From Candidatus Doudnabacteria bacterium RIFCSPHIGHO2_12_FULL_48_16 (GTDB lineage: Bacteria > Patescibacteriota > Doudnabacteria > UBA920 > O2-02-FULL-48-8): a stretch of 64,000 nt of DNA. The notes beneath the pieces are model-generated. The model did not search any database. It was given only the letters and a program-made list of their open reading frames with translations, and was not told where the DNA came from. The stretch is taken from positions 81,405 to 145,404 of the forward strand of contig MFEY01000004.1 of assembly GCA_001780035.1 (NCBI GenBank), given 5' to 3'. Numbering within the stretch: position 1 is the first letter of the stretch; each line of letters starts with the position of its first letter. The position numbers and the translations under genes were made by a program. Positions 7,117 to 64,000 of this stretch are shown here, in pieces.

Positions 7117-7863
7117 TTATCTAGGCGGCGGCCTTCTTCCTCTAAAGCCCGGAGGTGCAGGAAAATCGTTCTCTTCTACTTTTCTAATAGAATCTGCTGT
7201 GACTGTGGAATCTTGACGTTGGCCTAAAACTACGATGTGATTATCTACAGCAATATCTTTTCCCGTAGGAAACTCTGTCTTATCATCTATTATAATATCG
7301 ATAATATCTCCCCGTGGATCGCTAATCTTAAAGCCTTTATCTATTATTTCAGTTACAGTACCCACAGCCACGTTTCCTGGTGGTCTTTGCATGCCAAATT
7401 GTCGATAAAATCCGCCGCCGATGGGCAAACGATGATCACGGGCTCGATCAAATAACCCTCTATGGAGAGGGGTTTGTGCTATCACAAATCCTCCCGTCAA
7501 AACAACCAAAATAACTCCGATTGTGCTGTAAAGCAATGGTTTTCTATATCCAAAAGAATACTTTTTTACCAAAAATTCCAGGAGTATAATAAATATAATT
7601 GCAATCAAAACTAAAATCCAAGGCAAGGAAGTAAATAATAATCTTGGACCCCCAAATCCTGGTATGAACCAAACACCCGTTTGGTGCAGAATAAAAATAA
7701 TAAAGCTAACCAGGTATATCCCAGTAAGAATCGAGAGAACTGTGCCCACAACCAGCAAGGTTGCCTGCAATAGAAAATGCCACTTCGGTCGCATGATTAC
7801 CTTTCCTGTTTCGATCGCCCCAAGCACATTATCTTTTATTGATTTGTGGTCGTTATTGTTCAT
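7117..7863 (-). CDS. membrane protein, putative anti-sigma factor partner
   Basis: Multiple TM helices. It overlaps the 3' end of the upstream ECF sigma gene by 11 nt. Confidence 0.4.
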   Translation of the reverse strand: MNNNDHKSIKDNVLGAIETGKVIMRPKWHFLLQATLLVVGTVLSILTGIYLVSFIIFILHQTGVWFIPGFGGPRLLFTSLPWILVLIAIIFIILLEFLVKKYSFGYRKPLLYSTIGVILVVLTGGFVIAQTPLHRGLFDRARDHRLPIGGGFYRQFGMQRPPGNVAVGTVTEIIDKGFKISDPRGDIIDIIIDDKTEFPTGKDIAVDNHIVVLGQRQDSTVTADSIRKVEENDFPAPPGFRGRRPPPR

Positions 7864-8443
7864 AATTTATGAATTTGTTATATACTTTCTTAAGTATAGT
7901 TTTTGCCCTTGTTAATCTTACCCCGACCGTAGAAACAGGAATATGAATAATTTCAGAAATACTTTGATAATCCAGGTCTTCAAAATAATATAGCACTAGC
8001 GGTTCGCGATATTTGGGATCTAACTTATCCAAACATTTATTTAAAATTTCTTGAATTTGTTTTAAATCAATATCTTTTTCGACATTTTCTTTCGCCACCG
8101 GATGCGGAAACAAAGTATCCGAATCAAAAAAAGTCAAAGGTTCGTGTCCCTTTTTTTTGATTTTGTTTATAAACTCGTTGTGTGCAATTCGATAAAGCCA
8201 GGAAGAAAATTTCCGGCTAATATCAAATCCCTGGATATTCGAATACGCTTTTAAAAACACATCTTGAACCGCATCTTCGCCATCATGGTAGCCAAAAAGG
8301 AATTTCTTCGAGTATCGCATCATTTTTGCTTCATAACGCTCAACTAGTATCCCGAATTGTTGAGTATCCCCGTGTTTTACCTGATTTGCGATTTCTTCAT
8401 CTGTCAAACTCGAATGAGAGAGGTTCATTAACATATTATACAA
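7853..8443 (-). CDS. RNA polymerase sigma factor, ECF / sigma-70 family
   Basis: Sigma-70 region 2 (DAVQDVFLKAY...WLYRIAHNEFINKIKKK) and region 4 (YREPLVLYYFEDLDYQSISEI...STVGVRLTRAK). Confidence 0.85.
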   Translation of the reverse strand: MYNMLMNLSHSSLTDEEIANQVKHGDTQQFGILVERYEAKMMRYSKKFLFGYHDGEDAVQDVFLKAYSNIQGFDISRKFSSWLYRIAHNEFINKIKKKGHEPLTFFDSDTLFPHPVAKENVEKDIDLKQIQEILNKCLDKLDPKYREPLVLYYFEDLDYQSISEIIHIPVSTVGVRLTRAKTILKKVYNKFINYEQ

Positions 8444-8828: not shown

Positions 8829-9389
8829 ATGAAGGAGTCGCAAAAATACTTAACAGTTCAAGTCCTCAAACTTTTAGGTATGGGGGTTACCTTGACAGCC
8901 GTATCTTTGCTGTCCCCCACTTTTGTCTACGGAGCCCTCAAACGCTATGTAAAATATCGTCTCAACCAACCATATAAACGGGAACAAATCCGCAAAGCGG
9001 TTAATTACTTAAAACAAAAACGCTTTATCGCTTATCAGACCAAATCGGCCAAGAAACTGATTATTTTAACCAAAGCCGGCCAGCGGCGTTTACTGGAACT
9101 AAAAATTCTGGAGCTGAAAATCAAAAAAATCTCCTGGGATCAGCAATGGCGACTTGTCACTTTTGATATTCCAGAAAACGACAAAGCGGCCCGGTTTCGC
9201 TTCTGTCGGATGCTAAAGGATTTAGGCTTTTTTCACTTCCAACGCAGTGTCTTCATCCTGCCATATGCATGCGACAAACAAATCAGCCTAATCACGGAAT
9301 ATCTTAAAATTGACGCTTACGTCCATATTTTGACAACCAAGCGATTTCGAAGTGACCATCAACTTATTAAGCATTTTAGGCTTAAATAG
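8829..9389 (+). CDS. PaaX-like transcriptional regulator (winged helix plus PaaX/Cas2-like C-terminal fold)
   Basis: The motif RLVTFDIPENDKAARFRFCRMLKDLGFFHFQRSVFILPY resembles the PaaX C-terminal domain. Confidence 0.4.
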   Translation: MKESQKYLTVQVLKLLGMGVTLTAVSLLSPTFVYGALKRYVKYRLNQPYKREQIRKAVNYLKQKRFIAYQTKSAKKLIILTKAGQRRLLELKILELKIKKISWDQQWRLVTFDIPENDKAARFRFCRMLKDLGFFHFQRSVFILPYACDKQISLITEYLKIDAYVHILTTKRFRSDHQLIKHFRLK

Positions 9390-9451: not shown

Positions 9452-9994
9452 ATGACTGACTCGGAACTCAAACAATTCTTAGAAAGGGCCCAAAACGGCG
9501 ATAGCGCGGCATTTTCCCGCCTTTACGATGAATTTGCCGAAAAGCTATACCGCTTTATTTTCTTCCGCGTCGGCCACAAAGAAGTCGCCGAGGACCTCCT
9601 GTCCGACACTTTTGTCAAAGCTTGGCAAAAATTAAAACAAGTCAACTCCCCCGCGGCCATAACCGGCTGGTTCTACCAGATCGCCCGAAACAACATCATC
9701 GATTACTATCGGATCAAGAAAGATTTTGTCCCACTCGAAGAAGTGGCCGAATTTCTGGAAGACGCAGTCAACCCGATCGATACGATCAATCTGAATATGG
9801 ACCAGGCCAAAATTTTGGAACTGCTGGTCAAGCTGCCCGGTGAACAACGGCTCGTACTCCAATATAAATTTTTTGAAGACTTAACGAACGAAGAGATCGC
9901 CTACATCTTAAATAAAACCGAAGGCGCCATTCGTGTCATTCAGCACCGCGCGCTCATCAAATTGAAAGACTTAGTCAAACGCAAGTCCAAATAA
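9452..9994 (+). CDS. RNA polymerase sigma factor, ECF family
   Basis: Region 2 (AEDLLSDTFVKAWQKL...WFYQIARNNIIDYYR) and region 4 (QRLVLQYKFFEDLTNEEIAYILNKTEGAIRVIQHRAL). Confidence 0.85.
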   Translation: MTDSELKQFLERAQNGDSAAFSRLYDEFAEKLYRFIFFRVGHKEVAEDLLSDTFVKAWQKLKQVNSPAAITGWFYQIARNNIIDYYRIKKDFVPLEEVAEFLEDAVNPIDTINLNMDQAKILELLVKLPGEQRLVLQYKFFEDLTNEEIAYILNKTEGAIRVIQHRALIKLKDLVKRKSK

Positions 9995-19865: not shown

Positions 19866-20265
19866 GGACTTTTTGGTCGAGCAAATAGGCTAATTTTTTC
19901 AAGCGGCTCTCCGGAGCTTCGATAGTGGTTCGTAACTGCGGCTGTTCCTGTTGCTTGGCAACTTTTTTGATTGTGATGATCGGTTCGACCCGATGAAACA
20001 CCCGGACATGGGGTTTGGATAAAAAATTTATAAAAGCTCCGATAAAACCAACCATGGGCCGGCCGTTAAATTTAGCGAAAGCCAAGGCCAGGCCCAATAC
20101 GGCAAACGGGAAGGAAAAAAAGAAAAAGAATACTGAAATTTTTAAAACTGAATAAAATAAGAGGATGATCCCGCCGGTCAGCAATAAAATCAAGAATTGC
20201 TTGAGGGTCAACGGACCGATCAGTTTATCCTCGACATCGGTAAATTGAGGGATGGCATACTGCAT
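19822..20265 (-). CDS. small two-TM membrane protein, VirB3/PrgI-like candidate
   Basis: Two hydrophobic helices (FLILLLTGGIILLFYSVL and AVLGLALAFA) followed by a charged tail. It lies upstream of the VirB4-like gene. Confidence 0.35.
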   Translation of the reverse strand: MQYAIPQFTDVEDKLIGPLTLKQFLILLLTGGIILLFYSVLKISVFFFFFSFPFAVLGLALAFAKFNGRPMVGFIGAFINFLSKPHVRVFHRVEPIITIKKVAKQQEQPQLRTTIEAPESRLKKLAYLLDQKVHEEEELVGHAAHNT

Positions 20266-20292
20266 GAAATATTGAATATGAATTATGAACTA

Positions 20293-20655: not shown

Positions 20656-20722
20656 TTTGATTTATATTTCAAATTTCATCCTTTATACTTCAAACATTAT
20701 ACCATAAAGGGCAAGACTTATC

Positions 20723-28979: not shown

Positions 28980-29029
28980 GCCCAAAAAGAACGAACAGCG
29001 TTGAGCGTGCAGCGTAGAGAAAGGGCTAC

Positions 29030-29383
29030 TTAATTTTTGAGCTTGAAGATCATTGAATAAAGCATTTTTTGTACTTCTTCTAACAAGGCTTCTGCCCTAA
29101 AGTAATCAATATTAGAATACTGTTCTTTGGAAATAACAACCTGAGTTTCCAGTTCCGCAGCTGAACCCATAGCAATGCCCAAAAACTGAATAAACTCCCT
29201 CTGGTGATTCCTTCGATATCCTTCCGCGATGTTCGACGGGATTGCAACTGCTGCTCTTTGCATCTGAGAAACTAATCCATACATTTCAGTCTTAGGCATT
29301 TGTTTAGTGGCTGAATAGATCTCGTTTACGAGCTTAATTGCTTTTTGCCAAACTATAAGTTCTTTGAATGAATTTACTTTCAT
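29030..29383 (-). CDS. four-helix-bundle protein (23S rRNA-IVS / Avd-like family)
   Basis: MKVNSFKELIVWQKAIKLVNEIY...QMQRAAVAIPSNIAEGYRRNHQREFIQFLGIAMGSAAELETQ is a textbook family signature. Confidence 0.75.
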   Translation of the reverse strand: MKVNSFKELIVWQKAIKLVNEIYSATKQMPKTEMYGLVSQMQRAAVAIPSNIAEGYRRNHQREFIQFLGIAMGSAAELETQVVISKEQYSNIDYFRAEALLEEVQKMLYSMIFKLKN

Positions 29384-29393
29384 AAATTTTAAA

Positions 29394-30314
29394 TTAATTA
29401 TTTTCTGAACGCTGTCCGCTGTACGCTACACGCTTATAGAGTTCCACCCACTGTTCGATCTTCAAATCCTGGGGGCGAGTGGTCGGCTCAATCCCCGCTT
29501 GTTTGAGTAATTGCCATGTCTGCTCTTTGTTCATTTTCAAGCCGTTGGCCAGGGTGTTGTGAATCTGCTTTCGTTTGCCGGCAAAAGCAATCTTAACGAT
29601 GCGGAAAAAAGTTTTTTTGTCTTTGATCTCCGGATATTTGTCGCGCGGCGTGATTTTTAAAACCACGGAGTCAACTTCCGGCTGGGGCCAGAAACTTTCC
29701 TTGGGCACGCTCAGGACAATTTCAGCGTCGGCGTAAATCTGCACCGAAATCCCCAGAATGGAAAGTTCGCCCGCGCTAGCTGTCACCCGCTCCCCCACTT
29801 CCTTCTGGACCATGAGGACCATCGAGGTTGGTTTGTTTGCCATTTCCAGAAAAGTTTGTAACAGTTTGCTGGTGAGGTAATATGGAATGTTCGCCACGAC
29901 TTTATAATCGCCGGTAATGTGCTCAGAAAGATTGAATTTTAAAATATCTAAATTAAAAACTTTGTTTTTCTGCAACCCCGAACCTTGTCCCGGACTCCGA
30001 TCCGGGATTGATTCGGGGTCTTTTCGACGAGATCCTGAATTAAATTCAGGATTGCGCCGCAGCAACTCCGCCAACTTTGAATCCTTCTCGACCGCGATAA
30101 CTCGCCCCGCTCGTTTCACCAGTTCAAAAGTCAACACGCCCAACCCCGGGCCGACTTCCAAAACCACATCGCCCGGCTGCAGCTCGGCCGCGGCCACAAT
30201 CCCCTGCAAGGCAGCTTGGTCAACCAAAAAATTCTGACCGAGATAATCGCGAGGTTTCAAGCCGTGATGTTTTAAAAAAGTTTTAAGATTTTCTACGTCT
30301 ATGAGATTATTCAT
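29394..30314 (-). CDS. rsmA: 16S rRNA (adenine1518/1519-N6)-dimethyltransferase RsmA/KsgA, with a roughly 25-aa in-frame insertion
   Basis: SAM-binding motif LEVGPGLGVLT, and NIPYY. The insertion EFNSGSRRKDPESIPDRSPGQGSGLQ is encoded by nested palindromes. Confidence 0.85.
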   Translation of the reverse strand: MNNLIDVENLKTFLKHHGLKPRDYLGQNFLVDQAALQGIVAAAELQPGDVVLEVGPGLGVLTFELVKRAGRVIAVEKDSKLAELLRRNPEFNSGSRRKDPESIPDRSPGQGSGLQKNKVFNLDILKFNLSEHITGDYKVVANIPYYLTSKLLQTFLEMANKPTSMVLMVQKEVGERVTASAGELSILGISVQIYADAEIVLSVPKESFWPQPEVDSVVLKITPRDKYPEIKDKKTFFRIVKIAFAGKRKQIHNTLANGLKMNKEQTWQLLKQAGIEPTTRPQDLKIEQWVELYKRVAYSGQRSENN

Positions 30315-40337: not shown

Positions 40338-40378
40338 CTCTTTGAAAGCGTGGGGCGTTGAGCGTACAGCAGAGAGGT

Positions 40379-40699: not shown

Positions 40700-40812
40700 A
40701 AATATTTTAGTTATTTTTCTCAACGCTCTACGCTTGGCAATAAAAAACAGGGAGCGACGCTTGTGCATCACTCCCCGCAAACAGACGAAGGTGGCCTGAC
40801 CGCAAGATCAGA

Positions 40813-49299: not shown

Positions 49300-49410
49300 C
49301 TATAACTCCCTCGCTAACGCTGTATCTGACGCACCCCCTCTTACATTAAGAGGGGGTAAGACAGCATCTGCCCCTCCCCTTAATGTAAGGGGAGGCTGGG
49401 AGGGGTTATA
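49300..49410. repeat. TIR-flanked double-hairpin element, family A copy 1
   Basis: TATAACTCCC...CCCCCTCTTAcatTAAGAGGGGG...CCCCTTAatgTAAGGGG...GGGAGGGGTTATA. It lies in the ileS leader. Confidence 0.7.
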
Positions 49411-49608
49411 ATTCTTAGTTAAAAAATAAAAACAAATAAAAGCCTTGTTGTTTTGCGATCCCTTCCGCCGGCTGGCGGAGGGAGGTACCATCGCAATTCC
49501 TTTTGGCTCTTAATTCTGCTCTTTACGCCGAGCGCGCGGTAGGCTTCGCATCCGGTTGATAGCCGGCATCGCCTTTAACCTCCATATTATAGCAAATTGG
49601 CCAAAATT

Positions 49609-52685: not shown

Positions 52686-52792
52686 TATAACTCCCCCGCG
52701 AACTCTCAGTTGACGCACCCCCTCTTACATTAAGAGGGGGTGGAGTAGCGGCTGCTCTCCCCTTAATGTAAGGGGAGGGTGGGAGGGGTTAT
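52686..52792. repeat. TIR-flanked double-hairpin element, family A copy 2
   Basis: Same architecture as 49300-49410. It lies between the argS start and smpB. Confidence 0.7.
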
Positions 52793-52803
52793 TTTTCCTC
52801 CCT

Positions 52804-53253
52804 ATGCCTTCCCTCGCCAACAACCGCAAAGCTTTCCATGATTACTCGATCGAATCCACGCTCGAGGCCGGCTTGGTCTTGGCCGGCCATGAAGTCAAAA
52901 GCATCCGCAACGGGCAGGTCTCGCTCAATGGCGCCTATGTCACGATCCGCCTGGGCGAAGCCTGGCTGCGCAATGCGTATATTGGCAAATACAAACAAGC
53001 CTCGGGCCTGGAGGGCATCGATGAATCCCGCGAACGAAAGCTGCTCCTCAATAAACACGAGATCATTAAACTGCAGGATCTGCTCAAATCCAAAGGCTTA
53101 ACTCTGGTGCCGCTGGAAATTTACACATCCAAGGGGCGGCTGAAATTAAAAATCGGCGTCGGAAGAGGCAAAAAGCAATTCGACAAGCGCGAATCGATAA
53201 AGAAGAAAGAACTTAAAAGAGGCTTGGATAGAAAGATGAGGACGCGGGTATAA
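52804..53253 (+). CDS. smpB: SsrA-binding protein SmpB
   Basis: NRKAFHDYSIE...AGLVLAGHEVKSIRNGQVSLNGAYV. Confidence 0.9.
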   Translation: MPSLANNRKAFHDYSIESTLEAGLVLAGHEVKSIRNGQVSLNGAYVTIRLGEAWLRNAYIGKYKQASGLEGIDESRERKLLLNKHEIIKLQDLLKSKGLTLVPLEIYTSKGRLKLKIGVGRGKKQFDKRESIKKKELKRGLDRKMRTRV

Positions 53254-53727
53254 CTACCTCTCTGTCGGCTTCGCCGACATCTCTCCTGGAAGGAGAGATG
53301 AACTGCAGGTTAATTAAATATATGAAACTGCTTGAAAATTTAATTTTGGGTTCCCGGAGTTTAAGAAAAAACCAAACGCCTTGGGAAAATAAACTTTGGT
53401 ATAATCTCAGAGCCAAAAGATTTAAAGGATACCGTTTCCGAAGACAATTTGTTATTGGTTACTATATAGTTGACTTTTGCTGCTTTGAAAAGAAACTAAT
53501 TATAGAATTAGATGGGGGCCAACACAACGAAGAACAAACTCAACTAAATGATAAAGAAAGAACCGAATTTCTGAAATCACAAGGCTTCAAAGTAATAAGA
53601 TTTTGGAACAATGATATTCAAAAAAATCTCCCGGAAGTTTTAGAAACTATATTAGATAACTTGAAATAAAAAAATCCCCTCCCCTTCCAGGGGAGGGTGG
53701 CGCGAAGCGCCGGGTGGGGTAGTTATT
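53250..53727 (+). mobile_element. TIR-bounded element of about 478 bp carrying a DUF559 endonuclease gene (family B head, gene, family C tail)
   Basis: TATAACTACCTCTCTG (left) and GGGGTAGTTAT (right) are inverted repeats. A gene-less B+C version sits at 54316-54429. The element's first bases overlap the smpB stop codon. Confidence 0.5.
53322..53669 (+). CDS. DUF559 endonuclease-domain protein (Vsr/restriction-endonuclease-like fold)
   Basis: LRKNQTPWENKLWYNLRAKRFKGYRFRRQFVIGYYIVDFCC...IELDGGQHNEE. An alternative start lies at 53298, inside the repeat. Confidence 0.65.
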   Translation: MKLLENLILGSRSLRKNQTPWENKLWYNLRAKRFKGYRFRRQFVIGYYIVDFCCFEKKLIIELDGGQHNEEQTQLNDKERTEFLKSQGFKVIRFWNNDIQKNLPEVLETILDNLK

Positions 53728-53730
53728 ATT

Positions 53731-53886: not shown

Positions 53887-54271
53887 TGGTGGAGCTGGGG
53901 AGAATTGCACTCCCGTCCAAAAATTTTTGGCAAACACGTCTACAAGCTTAGACCGCTTTATGGTGTCCCCCAAGCAATAGAAGCGGACCAAAGCTGCTTG
54001 AGGTGAGCTCTAAGTGTCTTTTGGCTGTCGAGCACCGGCCAAAATGAGTCCGGATAATATAACACCTGTGATCCGCGCACAGACTTTACGGAGCAGATGG
54101 GTTATCGCTTAATTAAGCAACAGCCAGAGCAGGAGAGAATGCAAAAGCATTCTTAATTCTGCTTACCAATGAATTGGCATTTATGATTTGCCTTATTTTT
54201 TTAACCGAGAAATTAGGCTAATCGGACTTGCGGTATCTGTCAAAGAACTCTTGTCGAAGCTTAGCAGCCCC
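53887..54271 (-). ncRNA. ssrA: tmRNA (ssrA)
   Basis: Minus-strand 5' end GGGGCUGCUAAGCUUCGACAAGAG and 3' end GGACGGGAGUGCAAUUCUCCCCAGCUCCACCA (T-arm plus acceptor with a G3-U pair). An internal tag-like ORF ends ...SPALAVA-UAA. It is adjacent to smpB. Confidence 0.75.
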
Positions 54272-54315: not shown

Positions 54316-54429
54316 TTAATTACCTCTCTGTCGGCTTCGCCGACATCTCTCCTGGAAGGAGAGAATAAACTGCTGATTTGCCCTCCCCTTCCAGGGGAAG
54401 GTGCCGCGAAGCGGCGGGAGGGTAGTTAC
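54316..54429. repeat. gene-less B+C double-hairpin element (a MITE-like derivative of the 53250-53727 element)
   Basis: The family B hairpins (GTCGGCttcgGCCGAC, TCTCTCCtggaaGGAGAGA) and the family C hairpins (CCCTCCCCTtccAGGGGAAGG, GCCGCGAAGCGGC) are directly joined, flanked by ...TTAATTACCTC and GGTAGTTAC. Confidence 0.65.
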
Positions 54430-54483
54430 TCTTTACAAAAACTGTATTTTCCTCTATAATTACTGCGTATTAAACATAAACCG

Positions 54484-55687: not shown

Positions 55688-55813
55688 TATAACTCCCCCG
55701 CTGACTCCTTTATGACGCACCCCCTCTTATATTAAGAGGGGGTTTTAAAAAACCTGTCTTTCCTCCCCTTAAAATAAGGGGAGGTGGCGCGTTAGCGCCG
55801 GAGGGGTTAATAT
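55688..55813. repeat. TIR-flanked double-hairpin element, family A variant (loops TAT/AAAA, extra GCGCGTTAGCGCC hairpin). It doubles as the rplT terminator.
   Basis: CCCCCTCTTAtatTAAGAGGGGG is followed by TTTTAAAAAA. Confidence 0.65.
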
Positions 55814-56518: not shown

Positions 56519-56521
56519 ATA

Positions 56522-56630
56522 TATAACTCCCCCGCAAACGCTTGATCTAACGCACCCCCTCTTACATTAAGAGGGGGTAAGATAGCAGTTGCTCCTCCCC
56601 TTAATGTAAGGGGAGGCTGGGAGGGGTTAT
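56522..56630. repeat. TIR-flanked double-hairpin element, family A copy 4
   Basis: Same architecture as the other family A copies. Confidence 0.7.
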
Positions 56631-56709
56631 TTTCCAACCAACCGAAAACCGCCTGGGCTTTTCCCGAGGCGGTTTTCGTAATTCCTAATTCGTACTTCGT
56701 AATTCGATT

Positions 56710-59228: not shown

Positions 59229-59306
59229 ATCTAAAATTTAATATTTTTAATAGTTATTAACAGCTATTTCTCCCCAATAATAGCAAATTTTAATAGATTT
59301 GGGAAT

Positions 59307-59790
59307 TATAACTCCCCCGCTAACCCTCAGCTGAGGCACCCCCTCTTACATTAAGAGGGGGTGAACTGCAGATTAATTCTTTGGGCAGTATTCTAAGATT
59401 TTGTCGTATATCCCGTCGATATTTTCTATTACCTCATTATTCCAAAATCTTAATTCTCTAATATCGTTAGCTAATAAATAAGCCGTTCTTTCCTGATCAT
59501 ATTCTTTTTGTTCATCAGCGTGCTGACCTCCATCTAACTCAATGGCTAACCTCAATTCGGGACAATAAAAATCGAGAATATAATACCCGACGCTATATTG
59601 CCTTAAAAATTTATAGTCATTGCATTGTTTATTTCTTAGTACCTTCCAAAGTAACGATTCACAATCAGTTTGATTTTTTCTTAACTGCTGTCTTCGTGAT
59701 TTAATTTTCGGGTTGTTATATATTAGCTTCATCTTTGCGTTAGATGGCAGTTAACCCTCCCTTAATGTAAGGGAGGGTTAGGGTGGGTTA
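59307..59790. mobile_element. Family A element split by a DUF559 gene: a roughly 484-bp putative full-length copy of the family A double-hairpin element
   Basis: The left half is TATAACTCCCCCGC...GCACCCCCTCTTAcatTAAGAGGGGGT (59307-59362). The DUF559 gene lies at 59373-59732. The right half is AACCCTCCCTTAatgTAAGGGAGGGTTAGGGTGGGTTAT (59751-59790). Confidence 0.5.
59373..59732 (-). CDS. DUF559 endonuclease-domain protein
   Basis: LRKNQTDCESLLWKVLRNKQCNDYKFLRQYSVGYYILDFYC...IELDGGQHADEQ. It is a paralog of 53322-53669. Confidence 0.65.
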   Translation of the reverse strand: MKLIYNNPKIKSRRQQLRKNQTDCESLLWKVLRNKQCNDYKFLRQYSVGYYILDFYCPELRLAIELDGGQHADEQKEYDQERTAYLLANDIRELRFWNNEVIENIDGIYDKILEYCPKN

Positions 59791-59792
59791 TT

Positions 59793-62700
59793 TTACGGTG
59801 CTACTGGCTCCCCTGCCTCGCCAGCAGGCAGGTCGGCCGGCGGTGGGGTACCAGAATCAGCTGATGGGGTCACATCTTCTCCGCTTGGCAACTCTGAACT
59901 GGTTTCAGAGTCCCCGGTTTGAGATCCTGCCTGCCCGCCGGCTTGTCCGTCCGTAGTTTCAACGGAGGCGGAAGCGTCAGATGAAGGCTGGGATTCCTCT
60001 ACCGGCGGCTCTTCTGCAGGCGGAGTTTCTTCTCCCCCGCTCGTGCTGTCCCCGGAAACTGTTCCCTGTTCGCTGTTATCTGTCGTCTGACTATTCAAGC
60101 CCGCGTTCTGCAACAGCGTCTGCAACTGATTCTTGTCGATACAAACATCTTCCAGGCAGAGCCGCACGGCCACGATGGTGCCGTCCTCGCCAATGCTCCA
60201 CTTTCCTTGCAAGCCGGCAATGGATTTGACGTTGACGAACGCATGGCCGTTGCCGTCCAGATCCTGGGCCAGACTGATTAGCTGGCCGGAGAGATCCTGC
60301 GCCACATCGATATGCTGATAGCCGAGATTAACAAAAACCAAAACTGAATCTAATCCTTCTGTGCCACCCTGTGAATCTTCCAAAGCAATACCAATGGATT
60401 GGCCCGATTCGGTCATCTTGGCGGCGTATCCTGGCAATTGACTGGAAACAGTCAGCCGATCACCGGCATGGATCTGGCCGTTTTCTTCGGAAACCTTCAC
60501 CGGCACGCGACCAACTAAGGCCACGGGTTTTTGCAGGGCAAGTTTCCCCGGATTTTTCCAATCATAATTCATGACCGGACCCGGGGCCGTGGAAATTACC
60601 CCGATAAGCGTATGAGCGCCGGTGGCTGGGGCCACGGCAAAGCCATCGTCATTCGAGCTGGTGGCCACCATTTCCACAACCTCCCCGGGCTGGGGCGAGC
60701 CTTGGGTGTAATACATTTCGGCGACGTCGGCGGGAGTGGAATAGACATTGGCATCAGAATAGACTGAGCCGTCAGCCGTGATCTTAAAGTGCACAGTATC
60801 CACCCCGGAACCGACCGTGGAATCGGATTCAATGGAGAAGACGGATTGGGCGTCCGTGGATTCTTCAGTATTGATGTAGATACCTTCCAGGTTAGCGGCA
60901 TCGGTTTGGTTAATGACTAATTTACCGGTAGTCGGGCTGGTTTCCCCAATCCCGACGTTGCCGGCGCCTGTAATATGCATCGCTTCTGTTAGAACTCCCG
61001 CGTTATATGTCCGCAATCGCAATGCCGTCGTGCCTGAACTGTCCGAACGACGAGCTTGTAGGTAAGTGATATCACCTCCGGAAATAGGTACCATGTAGAT
61101 ATTGCCTACGGCATAGAATGCGCCGCTAGCGTTAGTGCCACTATCCGCTAACCAAATATCCCCGGAGCTATCAACATCTAATTTCCCCCTAGGGCTCGTG
61201 CTCCCGATGCCGACATTGCCGCCTAAGAAGGCCGCGGCGTAGTTGGCGCCAGCCCCGGTCGGAGTATTCACAGTTAAGCCATAGGCATTAGTCGCGGTCG
61301 AGACAGCGGTGACAGGAACTAAAATACCATGCGAGTTTGTAATGGCTACATTTGTGGACTTGATGGGGTTGGCTACGATTAAGCCTGCGGCATCAGTTAC
61401 GGTCTGGTTGGCATTGGTGCCGACCAGAGTCATGGCACCAATCTGGGCGCCGTAGAAAGTAGCGTAAGTGGTAGGGTCAGCGCCGGAAAGAGTAACTGTG
61501 TGGGCTCTTTGAGTGATACCGGAGACTCCCGCGGCGGCAAAGGTGCCAGTGGAGAGAATATCCAGCTTGGATGCGGGAGCAGTGGTGCCAATGCCGACGT
61601 TGCCGCCATTTAAGATTGTAAGGACTCCACTGCCTGCTCCGGAAGTGCCCAAACGCAAATTATTTCCAGTGGCGGCGTTTACGTCAGTATTTGTGCCGTC
61701 CACTGTGATACTAAACCTTGTGGCAGCTGTAGCGGCAGCGCCAATTCTGAATGCTTCACCTGTGACATCCGCACCCAGAGATAGGTGTAATTTAGTGCCT
61801 GGAGTCGTCGTCCCGATGCCGACGAGGCCGGCGGAATCGATTGTCATCCGCGTGCCCGTACCAGCAGCGCCGTCAGTCTGGAACAAAAGTTTGGAATAAG
61901 CGCTTGTGGCATGATCGTATTGTGCCACAATACCGGCTTCTATTGAGCTGGCTCCCATCAATGAAATCTTGGCGTAATCAGTATTGGCGGCTTGGGTTAC
62001 CAAACCTTGAGTTCGACTGACCGCACGAGTGGTGGTGGAAGATGAATATACGTGCAATAATTGAGCTGGATTCGTCGTCCCGATGCCGACGTTGCCCCCT
62101 AAGAACGCCGCCGCATAGTTGTTGGTAGCGCCAGTGGAAGCATTTACTGTCAGGCCGTAAGAATTAGTGGCGGTAGAAACAGCAGTAGCGGGAATCAAAA
62201 TTCCGTGAGTATTGGTAAGAGCCACATTCGTAGATTTAATCGGGTTGGCTACAATTAGTCCGGCCGCATCTGTGACGGTCTGGTTGATATTAGTGCCTAC
62301 TAAGGTCACAGCACCAATCTGGGCGCCGTAGAAAGTGGCGTAAGTAGTTGGGTCTGCGCCGGAGAGAGTGATGGTGTGGGCTCGCTGTGTAATTCCAGAA
62401 ACGCCGGCTGCGGCAAAGGTACCGGTGGAAAGAATATCCAGCTTGGAGGCGGGAACGCTAGTCCCAATGCCGACGTTGCCACTTGGAACAATGAAATTTT
62501 CTGTGTCCCGAGGAACCTGCCAAATATTGTGATAAACACTTGAGTAATATGTACGGAATAAAACATCGTCTGTTCCACCTGCTCCATCAATGAGGATTTC
62601 AGCATAGTTATTGTCAGCTCCACCAAGTGTCGAGCCTTGTCTCCAGGCTATACGCGGACTACCACCAGCTACGTCAGAAGATGAAATGATGCCGACTACG

Positions 62701-64000
62701 TCCAAAGGATTGATCGGATCCGTCGTCCCGATACCGACGTTGCCGGAACTTTCTATCCTCATCCTCTCCACTGCCGCCGAGGTAGTGGCTGTGCCGAATA
62801 CCAAGGCCGTGCTGTTGACTGTGGCGCTAAAAGTCGCTTCTGCTTCTGCCCAGATTCCAGCACCGGCGAGTATTGCATCAGAGCCATCGGATTCTAATGG
62901 TGAATTGAAATTGATTCTTCCTAGTTGATCATCATCAATGATGGTGAGTTCCTTGGTGGATAAAGTGAGAATACCTGCGCTTGTTGCTCCTGTGCCTACT
63001 GGTCCTTGGACGTCGAGAAGGGATTGCGGGACGGTGGTATTGATGCCGACGTTGCCATCCTTAGTCAGACGCATCTTTTCGGTTGGAGAGGTATCACCGG
63101 TTTCCCAAGCGAAGTATCCACCGCCTGCCGCAAACGAACCACTCGTCTGAATCTTCGTTCTGAAAACAAGACCTGCGCCAGAACCGTTCGGACGAAGCAT
63201 CTCCATCTCTGATGTGGCCAACTTCAGGCCGTAAGTTGTACTCGGAGCGCTGAGAATCAGGCCGAACTGCCCGACCGTGTCGGTCGTGTTGATATCTAGT
63301 TTCTGGCTTGGGTCTGTTCTCCCGATGCCGACTTCACCAGTGCCTAAGATCGTCATGCGGGCCGTATTGGCCGTGCCGAAATGGATATTCTTATTTGTGC
63401 TTAAAGTACTGGCATACAAGATGGTGTCGTAAGCGCTACTACCCGGAAGCAGTGCGCCAGCAGAGCTACCCTCAACTGCCAAATAACCGTTGTTGCCCGT
63501 ATTGGCAAATCCTAATACCACTCCGTTAGTTCCAGTAGTTGAAGTTATTTGCACCCGGCCGGTTGCCGCCTGAACTTCCAGCGGGAAGACTGGATTCGTC
63601 GTCCCGATACCCACATTCCCTCCCAAGAATGCTGCGGCATAGTTGTTGGTTGCGCCAGTTGGAGTATTAACTGTCAGGCCGTAAGAATTAGTGGCGGTAG
63701 AGACAGCGGTAACAGGAATTAAAATTCCATGAGTATTGGTGAGAGCCACATTAGTGGATTTGATTGGGTTGGCCACGATCAGACCAGCGGCATCTGTGAC
63801 GGTCTGGTTGATATTAGTGCCAGCCAAAGTCATGGCACCAATCTGAGCGCCGTAGAAGGTAGCGTAAGTAGTCGGGTCAGCGCCAGAGAGAGTGACTGTG
63901 TGTGCTCTTTGAGTGATACCGGAAACCCCGGCGGCGGCAAAGGTGGCTGTTGGGAGAATGTCGAGTTTGGAAGCCGGGCTTGCTGTGCCGATACCGATAT
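59793..64000 (-). CDS. giant tandem-repeat surface/fibre-like protein. It is N-terminally incomplete: the ORF stays open to the window edge.
   Basis: At least four repeats of about 165 aa (…AGVSGITQRAHTITLSGADPTTYATFYGAQIGAVTLVGTNINQTVTDAAGLIVANPIKSTNVALTNTHGILIP…GGNVGIGTT). It has a C-terminal globular region and an acidic S/P/E-rich tail. Region 63834-64000 continues the repeat in frame with no stop codon. Confidence 0.5.
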   Translation of the reverse strand, partial: IGIGTASPASKLDILPTATFAAAGVSGITQRAHTVTLSGADPTTYATFYGAQIGAMTLAGTNINQTVTDAAGLIVANPIKSTNVALTNTHGILIPVTAVSTATNSYGLTVNTPTGATNNYAAAFLGGNVGIGTTNPVFPLEVQAATGRVQITSTTGTNGVVLGFANTGNNGYLAVEGSSAGALLPGSSAYDTILYASTLSTNKNIHFGTANTARMTILGTGEVGIGRTDPSQKLDINTTDTVGQFGLILSAPSTTYGLKLATSEMEMLRPNGSGAGLVFRTKIQTSGSFAAGGGYFAWETGDTSPTEKMRLTKDGNVGINTTVPQSLLDVQGPVGTGATSAGILTLSTKELTIIDDDQLGRINFNSPLESDGSDAILAGAGIWAEAEATFSATVNSTALVFGTATTSAAVERMRIESSGNVGIGTTDPINPLDVVGIISSSDVAGGSPRIAWRQGSTLGGADNNYAEILIDGAGGTDDVLFRTYYSSVYHNIWQVPRDTENFIVPSGNVGIGTSVPASKLDILSTGTFAAAGVSGITQRAHTITLSGADPTTYATFYGAQIGAVTLVGTNINQTVTDAAGLIVANPIKSTNVALTNTHGILIPATAVSTATNSYGLTVNASTGATNNYAAAFLGGNVGIGTTNPAQLLHVYSSSTTTRAVSRTQGLVTQAANTDYAKISLMGASSIEAGIVAQYDHATSAYSKLLFQTDGAAGTGTRMTIDSAGLVGIGTTTPGTKLHLSLGADVTGEAFRIGAAATAATRFSITVDGTNTDVNAATGNNLRLGTSGAGSGVLTILNGGNVGIGTTAPASKLDILSTGTFAAAGVSGITQRAHTVTLSGADPTTYATFYGAQIGAMTLVGTNANQTVTDAAGLIVANPIKSTNVAITNSHGILVPVTAVSTATNAYGLTVNTPTGAGANYAAAFLGGNVGIGSTSPRGKLDVDSSGDIWLADSGTNASGAFYAVGNIYMVPISGGDITYLQARRSDSSGTTALRLRTYNAGVLTEAMHITGAGNVGIGETSPTTGKLVINQTDAANLEGIYINTEESTDAQSVFSIESDSTVGSGVDTVHFKITADGSVYSDANVYSTPADVAEMYYTQGSPQPGEVVEMVATSSNDDGFAVAPATGAHTLIGVISTAPGPVMNYDWKNPGKLALQKPVALVGRVPVKVSEENGQIHAGDRLTVSSQLPGYAAKMTESGQSIGIALEDSQGGTEGLDSVLVFVNLGYQHIDVAQDLSGQLISLAQDLDGNGHAFVNVKSIAGLQGKWSIGEDGTIVAVRLCLEDVCIDKNQLQTLLQNAGLNSQTTDNSEQGTVSGDSTSGGEETPPAEEPPVEESQPSSDASASVETTDGQAGGQAGSQTGDSETSSELPSGEDVTPSADSGTPPPADLPAGEAGEPVAP

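Follow-up and report, generated by a model that had tools for sequence, protein, structure and literature searches.

Palindromes that sit in frame within genes and behave as 'selfish' DNA are known from Rickettsia as a textbook curiosity. According to PMC10969869 and PMC3184786, the Rickettsia palindromic elements (RPEs) are families of approximately 105-146 bp described from Rickettsia (Ogata et al. 2000, 2002), palindromic, inserted in frame and without stop codons in unrelated housekeeping genes, whose products gain a peptide that the fold can accommodate, and present also in non-coding DNA. REP and REPIN sequences are by definition extragenic, the REPIN being an inverted doublet of REPs, and have been linked to the RAYT tyrosine transposases (Bertels and Rainey 2011, PMC3116915). 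Small non-autonomous repeats fused into protein genes have also been described, such as BRE of Bordetella and BOX, RUP and SPRITE of pneumococcus (PMC3184786).

In this study we analyzed a stretch of 64,000 nt (hereafter the window) from a member of the Doudnabacteria, in which the rsmA gene carries a block of hairpins. [quoted passage not shown] It resembles RPEs in the stable hairpin palindrome, the in-frame position in several unrelated genes (rsmA, uvrD, ileS, the genes for PseudoU_synth_2, Dus and GT2 proteins, and an ORF of 1346 aa in the window), the fold-compatible peptide and the additional copies in non-coding DNA. The original prediction of an RPE-like element was therefore right as to the selfish behavior of a palindrome in frame but not as to RPE membership, the unit being 28 nt and the doublet 62 nt in length (85 nt for the block with its nested hairpin) as against 105-146 bp; it is size and the CPR host that set the two apart. 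With REP and REPIN sequences the element shares a short, imperfectly palindromic unit (28 nt, for a class of approximately 20-40 nt), the organization in singlets and inverted doublets with a short spacer, the dispersal of copies, many of them extragenic, and the lack of coding capacity of its own, but several of its copies are translated inside genes and no RAYT was found in the window. BRE, BOX, RUP and SPRITE are likewise small, non-autonomous repeats that sometimes lie inside coding sequences or extend their ends, but they belong to other families and other hosts and mostly disrupt or extend genes rather than form loops in essential enzymes.

A literature search gave no account of such elements in CPR bacteria or Patescibacteria, which does not prove that none exists. 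The kind of phenomenon is known, and what appear to be new are the element family, the REPIN-like doublet within a coding sequence, the nesting and the host group. The in-frame behavior known from Rickettsia is seen here in CPR bacteria with a much smaller, REPIN-like element, which explains a part of the odd length variation and of the low-complexity inserts in CPR housekeeping proteins. Inserts of this kind can mislead the annotation of marker genes as well as their alignment and phylogeny; they also place strong mRNA hairpins inside essential genes.

Hairpin block within the rsmA gene

The rsmA product of the window belongs to the ribosomal RNA adenine dimethylases (Pfam RrnaAD, E = 5e-59), with the KsgA/RsmA proteins of B. 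subtilis, T. thermophilus and E. coli as its best relatives in PDB (1e-41), and is 100% identical to a Candidatus Doudnabacteria bacterium protein named RsmA, seen on 19 contigs. The HMMER alignment to the solved KsgA structures breaks exactly at the insert segment, and the extra length is therefore real; the motifs aligned by Pfam and PDB are intact on both sides of the insert.

The insert consists of three perfect hairpins with stems of 7-9 bp, packed into approximately 85 nt (for details see Table 1). The palindromes reported originally in rsmA are indeed present, with every coordinate given 1 base too low, and are in frame and stop-free as proposed, all three hairpins lying inside the rsmA ORF. 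The number of exact matches to these hairpin patterns expected by chance in the window is 0.00-0.01. The predicted fold of the 111-nt mRNA segment consists of exactly the three helices found, with a free energy of -51.8 kcal/mol as against -29.4 +/- 3.4 for 200 dinucleotide shuffles (z = -6.57), none of the 200 being as good. No match in Rfam 15 overlapped the insert, even at E up to 10, and at the gathering thresholds the whole window gave only 3 tRNAs and the tmRNA.

Table 1. Features of the rsmA insert and of the second family copy in the window
Feature	Position	Strand	Structure and coding	Basis
rsmA/ksgA gene (306 aa) carrying the element	29394..30314	minus		ORF list; Pfam RrnaAD; KsgA/RsmA structures
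Whole inserted block, inverted doublet of REP-like units plus nested hairpin	29972..30056	minus	encodes approximately R87-Q115 (RNPEFNSGSRRKDPESIPDRSPGQGSGLQ)	nhmmer profile of 9 doublet copies, E = 5e-13; fold z
Unit 1 (5' in mRNA)	30029..30056	minus	CGCAAT-CCTGAA-TTTAA-TTCAGG-ATCTC; second hairpin, ATCCTGAAT 30032-30040 paired with ATTCAGGAT 30044-30052 (9 bp, 3-nt loop); encodes RNPEFNSGS	single-unit profile, E = 1e-8
Spacer between units	30021..30028	minus	mRNA GTCGAAAA; encodes approximately RRK; varies among copies	alignments of copies
Unit 2, inverted orientation	29972..30020	minus	GACCCCGAA-TCAA(nested)G-TTCGGGGTTGC; outer stem, ACCCCGAA 29975-29982 paired with TTCGGGGT 30012-30019 (8 bp, 29 nt between arms); encodes DPES...SGL	palindrome search; orientation test
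Nested third hairpin	29984..30007	minus	24 nt in the 5-nt loop of unit 2, boundaries ambiguous by ~4 nt; mRNA TCCCGGA-tcggag-TCCGGGA-caag; inner stem, TCCCGGA 29988-29994 paired with TCCGGGA 30001-30007 (7 bp, 6-nt loop); encodes IPDRSPGQ	+24 nt relative to other copies
Second, partly decayed family copy	59886..59932	minus	...CAGGATCTC-aaaccggg-GACTCTGAAaccagTTCAGAGTTGC (DSETSSEL); in frame within ORF 59793-63833 (1346 aa), in its low-complexity tail at the C terminus	profile searches

The basic unit is approximately 28 nt long and is made up of CGCAAT, a 6-nt stem core NCYGAA, a 5-nt loop CTYGW, TTCRGN and ATCTC, its stem pairing over 8 bp when the adjacent flank bases are included. From the DNA of eight orthologues, which was fetched for comparison of the inserts, the rsmA copies were found to be built as CGCAAT-NCYGAA-loop-TTCRGN-ATCTC, a spacer of 8-9 nt, and then (A/G)AGAY-CCYGAA-loop-TTCRGG-RTTGC(G). 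In the window, units 1 and 2 agree at 10 of the 16 non-palindromic positions when unit 2 is reverse-complemented and at 2 of 16 in direct orientation, and in 8 doublets the two units match at 10-13 of 16 flank and loop positions when inverted and at 2-7 when compared directly. These matches make the block an inverted doublet of a single unit of ~28 nt. The outer ends, CGCAAT and ATTGCG, pair with each other (helix 1: 95% paired, with zero covariation).

The loop of unit 2 is plain TCAAG, TCGAG, ACAAG or similar in the six remaining doublet copies and in L082, where only the second hairpin (H2) is found. Only the window copy has 24 extra nt at this point, TCAA(TCCCGGAtcggagTCCGGGAcaag)G, so that a third hairpin is nested in the loop of another, with a possible repeat of CAA on either side. 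Hairpins of the nested type ATCCCGGAtcaagTCCGGGAT recur at another rsmA site in L086 and in the metagenome contigs L096 and L105. No consistent target-site duplication was detected at the rsmA or uvrD junctions.

The AlphaFold2 model of the window RsmA, made with 25 homologues, has a confident KsgA fold (mean pLDDT 83.8, pTM 0.80), in which residues 94-114, between helix 79-92 and strand 117-120, have pLDDT values below 50. In good agreement with the surface loop proposed originally, the insert is modelled as a disordered loop of low confidence on an otherwise confident fold, and the insertion site appears compatible with that fold. In the topology of class I methyltransferases the connection between helix B and strand 3 is at the edge opposite the SAM-binding C-terminal ends of the strands, and the insert would lie on the side of the Rossmann fold away from the SAM pocket.

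Copies in other genes and in intergenic DNA

Further copies of the CCCCGAA...TTCGGGG type, which the original prediction suggested searching for, were found in related genomes but not, as intact exact stems, anywhere else within the 64 kb, so that most of the evidence for dispersal was provided by those genomes. Outside rsmA the palindromes are present in uvrD and ileS in sister genomes, at 21 metagenome loci and as one decayed copy in the window. Whole-unit pattern searches of the window detected the rsmA copy only, the decayed copy being found with the doublet profile (E = 6.7e-4 in a search of 1.24 Mb) and with the unit profile (E = 0.0027 in the window); the window content is 3 units plus the nested hairpin.

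After a scan of Doudnabacteria loci for perfect hairpins, the same doublet of ~62 nt was identified in frame in the neighboring uvrD gene of both L085 (9293-9355) and L086 (9373-9432), together with a single unit in ileS of L086, translated there as ILKQVQD. The junctions of the two uvrD copies differ in position by four codons, and the frame in which their first unit is translated differs as well (MLNSIQH in L085, NPELVSGS in L086), indicating that these copies are independent events or have been heavily remodelled. The stem variants are specific to the genome: in L085 both rsmA and uvrD carry GCTGAA/TTCAGC, and in L086 both carry the otherwise unique AACCCTGAA/TTCAGGGT. By our tally, approximately 7 units lie outside rsmA in ~170 kb of Doudnabacteria loci.

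The 25-nt pattern GAYCCYGAAWCRAGTTCRGGRTTGC, for which we estimate a chance expectation of less than one match, was used to scan metagenomes and gave 21 loci, all outside rsmA. Of these, four lie within genes recognized by Pfam, PseudoU_synth_2 (an RluD-type pseudouridine synthase), Dus and, twice, Glycos_transf_2 (GT2), and approximately 13 are outside any ORF of more than 100 aa; many are full doublets and others singlets. Singlet units were found in L082, L086, L090, L095, L097, L104, L105 and L107. Translated copies inside genes thus comprise that of the window rsmA and at least 8 others. The scan of genome contigs with the RsmA protein gave one Doudnabacteria locus, the rest being distant rsmA genes of CPR bacteria and Chloroflexi, and related doublets flanked by GTCAT...ATGAC adjoin or lie near rsmA in loci of Saccharibacteria and other Patescibacteria. 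A doubled 42-aa profile of the doublet peptide, searched against a database of 5.8 billion proteins, gave 7 weak matches to short ORFs, and the RsmA proteins themselves were not recovered.

These copies bear on the possibility that the hairpins were made in place by errors of replication (template switching, quasi-palindrome correction or local duplication) within a length-tolerant loop, with no mobile element involved. The near-duplication of the two units, ~33 nt apart, agrees with such an origin, as do the variable length of the loop in many lineages and the weak stem, ATTCTGAA...TTCGGAAT, at the site in the insert-free L088. Local errors, however, cannot yield the same flanks (CGCAAT...ATCTC), the same loops and the same doublet organization in unrelated genes and contigs, and we consider an origin in place very unlikely.

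Distribution and pairing of the insert among RsmA homologues

In order to compare the length of the loop, the residues from VEKD to ANIPY were counted in 119 close RsmA homologues (51-64% identity, mostly Doudnabacteria). The distance is 41-46 residues in 92 of them, 48-50 in 3 and 54-89 in 24, as against 66 in the window, so that the extra residues first noticed by comparison with KsgA are confirmed. The segment is not carried by all orthologues: the 92 Doudnabacteria-like homologues have no insert at the site, and among them is P0006/L088, the nearest neighbor of the window in the tree. The doublet was found at this site in seven carriers, with the peptide pattern N[PTA]E[FL]xS[GVA]S, xxx, DPExxSGL, and the nested hairpin in the window alone; P0074 has the second half of the doublet only, and in approximately 16 of the 119 this loop holds other inserts, repeat-derived but unrelated to the doublet. 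When the insert was masked and a neighbor-joining tree of all 119 was built, the carriers fell at scattered positions, each with an insert-free neighbor, in a topology whose deep nodes are too short to tell many gains from many losses. The 5' junction is common to 6 of the 7 rsmA copies, and the host proteins are only 52-64% identical to the window RsmA. The net gain from the doublet is 11-17 residues, or 22 for the window copy including its nested hairpin, rather than the expected 21; therefore a few native residues of the loop were lost and the insertion was not clean.

The pairing of the stems was analyzed in an alignment of 64 columns and 7 sequences, from which the nested 24 nt of the window copy had been removed because MAFFT had misplaced that gap. 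Both hairpins, of 8 bp each, are 100% paired in all seven rsmA copies, with two covarying pairs per hairpin; altogether there are 4 covarying pairs and 10 cells changed on both sides, one G:U pair and no broken pair, and registers slid as controls gave 20-42% pairing. The paired changes of H1 replace both amino acids (P/T/A together with G/V/A); the covarying positions of H2, on either arm, are third codon positions at which the change is synonymous. This pattern shows the hairpin, and not the peptide, to be the conserved feature, which is not in itself a demonstration of selection in rsmA. The 'covariation' of the rsmA copies can be polymorphism of the repeat family and not compensation in place, because rsmA and uvrD copies of the same genome have stem variants in common.

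The changes in H1 are hard to reconcile with an ordinary, lineage-specific protein loop that was selected for its amino acids and in which the palindromes are incidental, since the stem is kept there and the peptide is not. Conservation of the peptide DPE(S/T)SSGL in several orthologues is in favor of such a loop, but the same DNA is read in other frames as ILKQVQD (ileS of L086) and MLNSIQH (uvrD of L085), copies lie in non-coding DNA, and the segment is disordered in the AlphaFold2 model. Of the explanations considered, we regard this as the least probable.

The perfect pairing could also be that of an ancestral cis-acting RNA or DNA structure, needed by rsmA for processing, stability, pausing or autoregulation and kept by selection on pairing. 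The seven fully paired orthologous copies, in which 4 pairs covary through 10 double changes with none broken, are as expected for a functional structure, and so are the synonymous nature of the H2 positions on both arms, the common 5' junction of 6 of 7 copies and the very stable fold. On the other hand, the doublet is found also in uvrD, ileS, genes for pseudouridine and dihydrouridine synthases and glycosyltransferases and in intergenic DNA; 77% of the close RsmA orthologues lack it; rsmA and uvrD copies within one genome have the same stem variants; and Rfam gave zero matches. A function specific to rsmA is thus unlikely, though less so than the two alternatives above.

The reading as a selfish palindromic element tolerated as a loop, as proposed originally, is supported by the insert-free state as the norm among orthologues, by the same element in unrelated genes and intergenic DNA and by the disordered loop predicted. 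The common 5' junction in 6 of the 7 copies, the scattered distribution and the perfect stems would fit recurrent, targeted insertion and equally an ancient insertion followed by losses and conversion, and a shared junction with full pairing at 52-64% identity could reflect an old insertion whose structure was maintained by selection or gene conversion. Perfect pairing and covariation at an orthologous site thereby raise a testable question, whether the elements are young and recurrent or old and maintained.

As to how the selfish element came to lie in rsmA, the two units, inverted and 8 nt apart, represent the REPIN-like doublet form, into the loop of whose unit 2 a third, related hairpin of 20 nt with 4 extra bases has been inserted. 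The copy was presumably kept because its reading frame is one of the two that run through the palindrome without a stop (xPExxSGx), and because the connection of helix B with strand 3, where it is located, is probably away from the SAM pocket; with this permissive frame and site the enzyme would retain all catalytic motifs and gain a disordered loop of ~22 residues. The element may spread as DNA through an enzyme acting in trans, possibly by a single-strand route with recognition of hairpins such as that of RAYT or IS200/IS605 transposases, as the organization in singlets and inverted doublets and the insertion into a hairpin loop suggest. No Y1/HUH domain (RAYT; Y1_Tnp) was detected in the 30 small ORFs scanned in the 64-kb window. 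Selection might merely remove the copies that break genes, and the strong hairpins in the mRNA would then be a side effect and not the reason for the insert.

A more far-reaching proposal, which we put forward as possible though doubtful, is that CPR bacteria have a hitherto undescribed REPIN-like hairpin system, moved by an enzyme not recognized as a RAYT, whose copies routinely land and are kept in surface loops of essential enzymes (RsmA, UvrD, IleRS, RluD-type synthases and Dus), with stems that selection or gene conversion holds perfect through deep divergence. If so, the hairpins would be more than tolerated junk, being either functional RNA or DNA modules or a means by which very small genomes repeatedly gain new protein loops.

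The loop between helix B and strand 3 of RsmA is, by the comparison of its inserts, a hot spot for differing repeats. About a quarter of the Doudnabacteria RsmA proteins have some repeat-derived insert at this one loop, and peptides found in the same loop or region of RsmA from other Doudnabacteria and other CPR bacteria include ILRFAQNDKKILKQVQDD, VIPAKAGIQ, RLRGNDKK, VIASKAKQS, ILKQVQDD and TPPTPSYSKRGL. We take ILRFAQNDKKILKQVQDD, VIPAKAGIQ, RLRGNDKK and VIASKAKQS to be typical of translated REP-like hairpins. Three genes of L082, uvrD, rsmA and one more, contain in frame a different, GC-rich repeat of ~95 nt (SPLGTRGE...TPPTPSYSKRGL).

Other repeats were also noted in RsmA. The same loop of L001 (2089-3012; Doudnabacteria JACQPC01) and of P0069 carries a long, AT-rich, imperfect inverted repeat of a different family, encoding SNIEYRSTKQIQISNDQN...FGFRVSN. 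Further repeat-like inserts, for example RSLSPSP...GDGFGN and SAKGGSASGG, were seen at other RsmA loops in P0048, P0052, P0069, P0091 (after the ADAEIV motif) and P0086 (two more sites), indicating that several loops of the enzyme accept such insertions.

Helix 45 of 16S rRNA, the substrate of RsmA, has the loop GGAA. Mimicry of this helix by the hairpins was considered and rejected, because their loops are TCAAG and TTTAA and not GGAA, and because copies are present in unrelated genes.

Other repeats and genes of the window

A second type of repeat-associated gene adjoins rsmA. Directly downstream is a PF05635 gene (29030-29383; 23S rRNA intervening-sequence protein, a four-helix bundle) between the inverted repeats 28997-29022 and 29402-29427, and the right arm falls within the ~11 codons that end the rsmA reading frame (tail VAYSGQRSENN), so that rsmA bears a second footprint, that of a cassette-like element. 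The window contains at least four PF05635 genes, of which three were examined, each being located between inverted repeats (for the other two, 40346-40362 / 40719-40735 and 20257-20283 / 20660-20686).

Two genes for DUF559/Vsr-like endonucleases (PF04480) were identified at 53298-53669 (plus) and 59373-59732 (minus), both bracketed by GC-rich ends bearing hairpins (regions 53250-53730 and 59290-59795), with the terminal repeats ATAACTCCCCC / GGGAGGGGTTAT. Intergenic repeats of ~100-110 nt, at 54320-54430, 49305-49412, 52700-52797, 55690-55812 and 56520-56637, are apparently the same two ends joined without an ORF, which suggests that they may be MITE-like derivatives of the element that carries DUF559. 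A related repeat was observed in frame in three genes of L082. An ORF of 186 aa (8829-9389) with a PaaX central / Cas2-like domain lies between two genes for ECF-type sigma factors (7853-8443 and 9452-9994), no CRISPR array having been noticed nearby. Within ileS, Pfam identified a His_Phos_1 (histidine phosphatase) domain in L081, L084, L086 and L088 (1140-1171 aa), but not in L085 (1012 aa). The tmRNA (53887-54271, minus; Rfam 118 bits) and the SmpB gene (52804-53253, plus) are close together in the window, with the DUF559 cassette and hairpin repeats between them.
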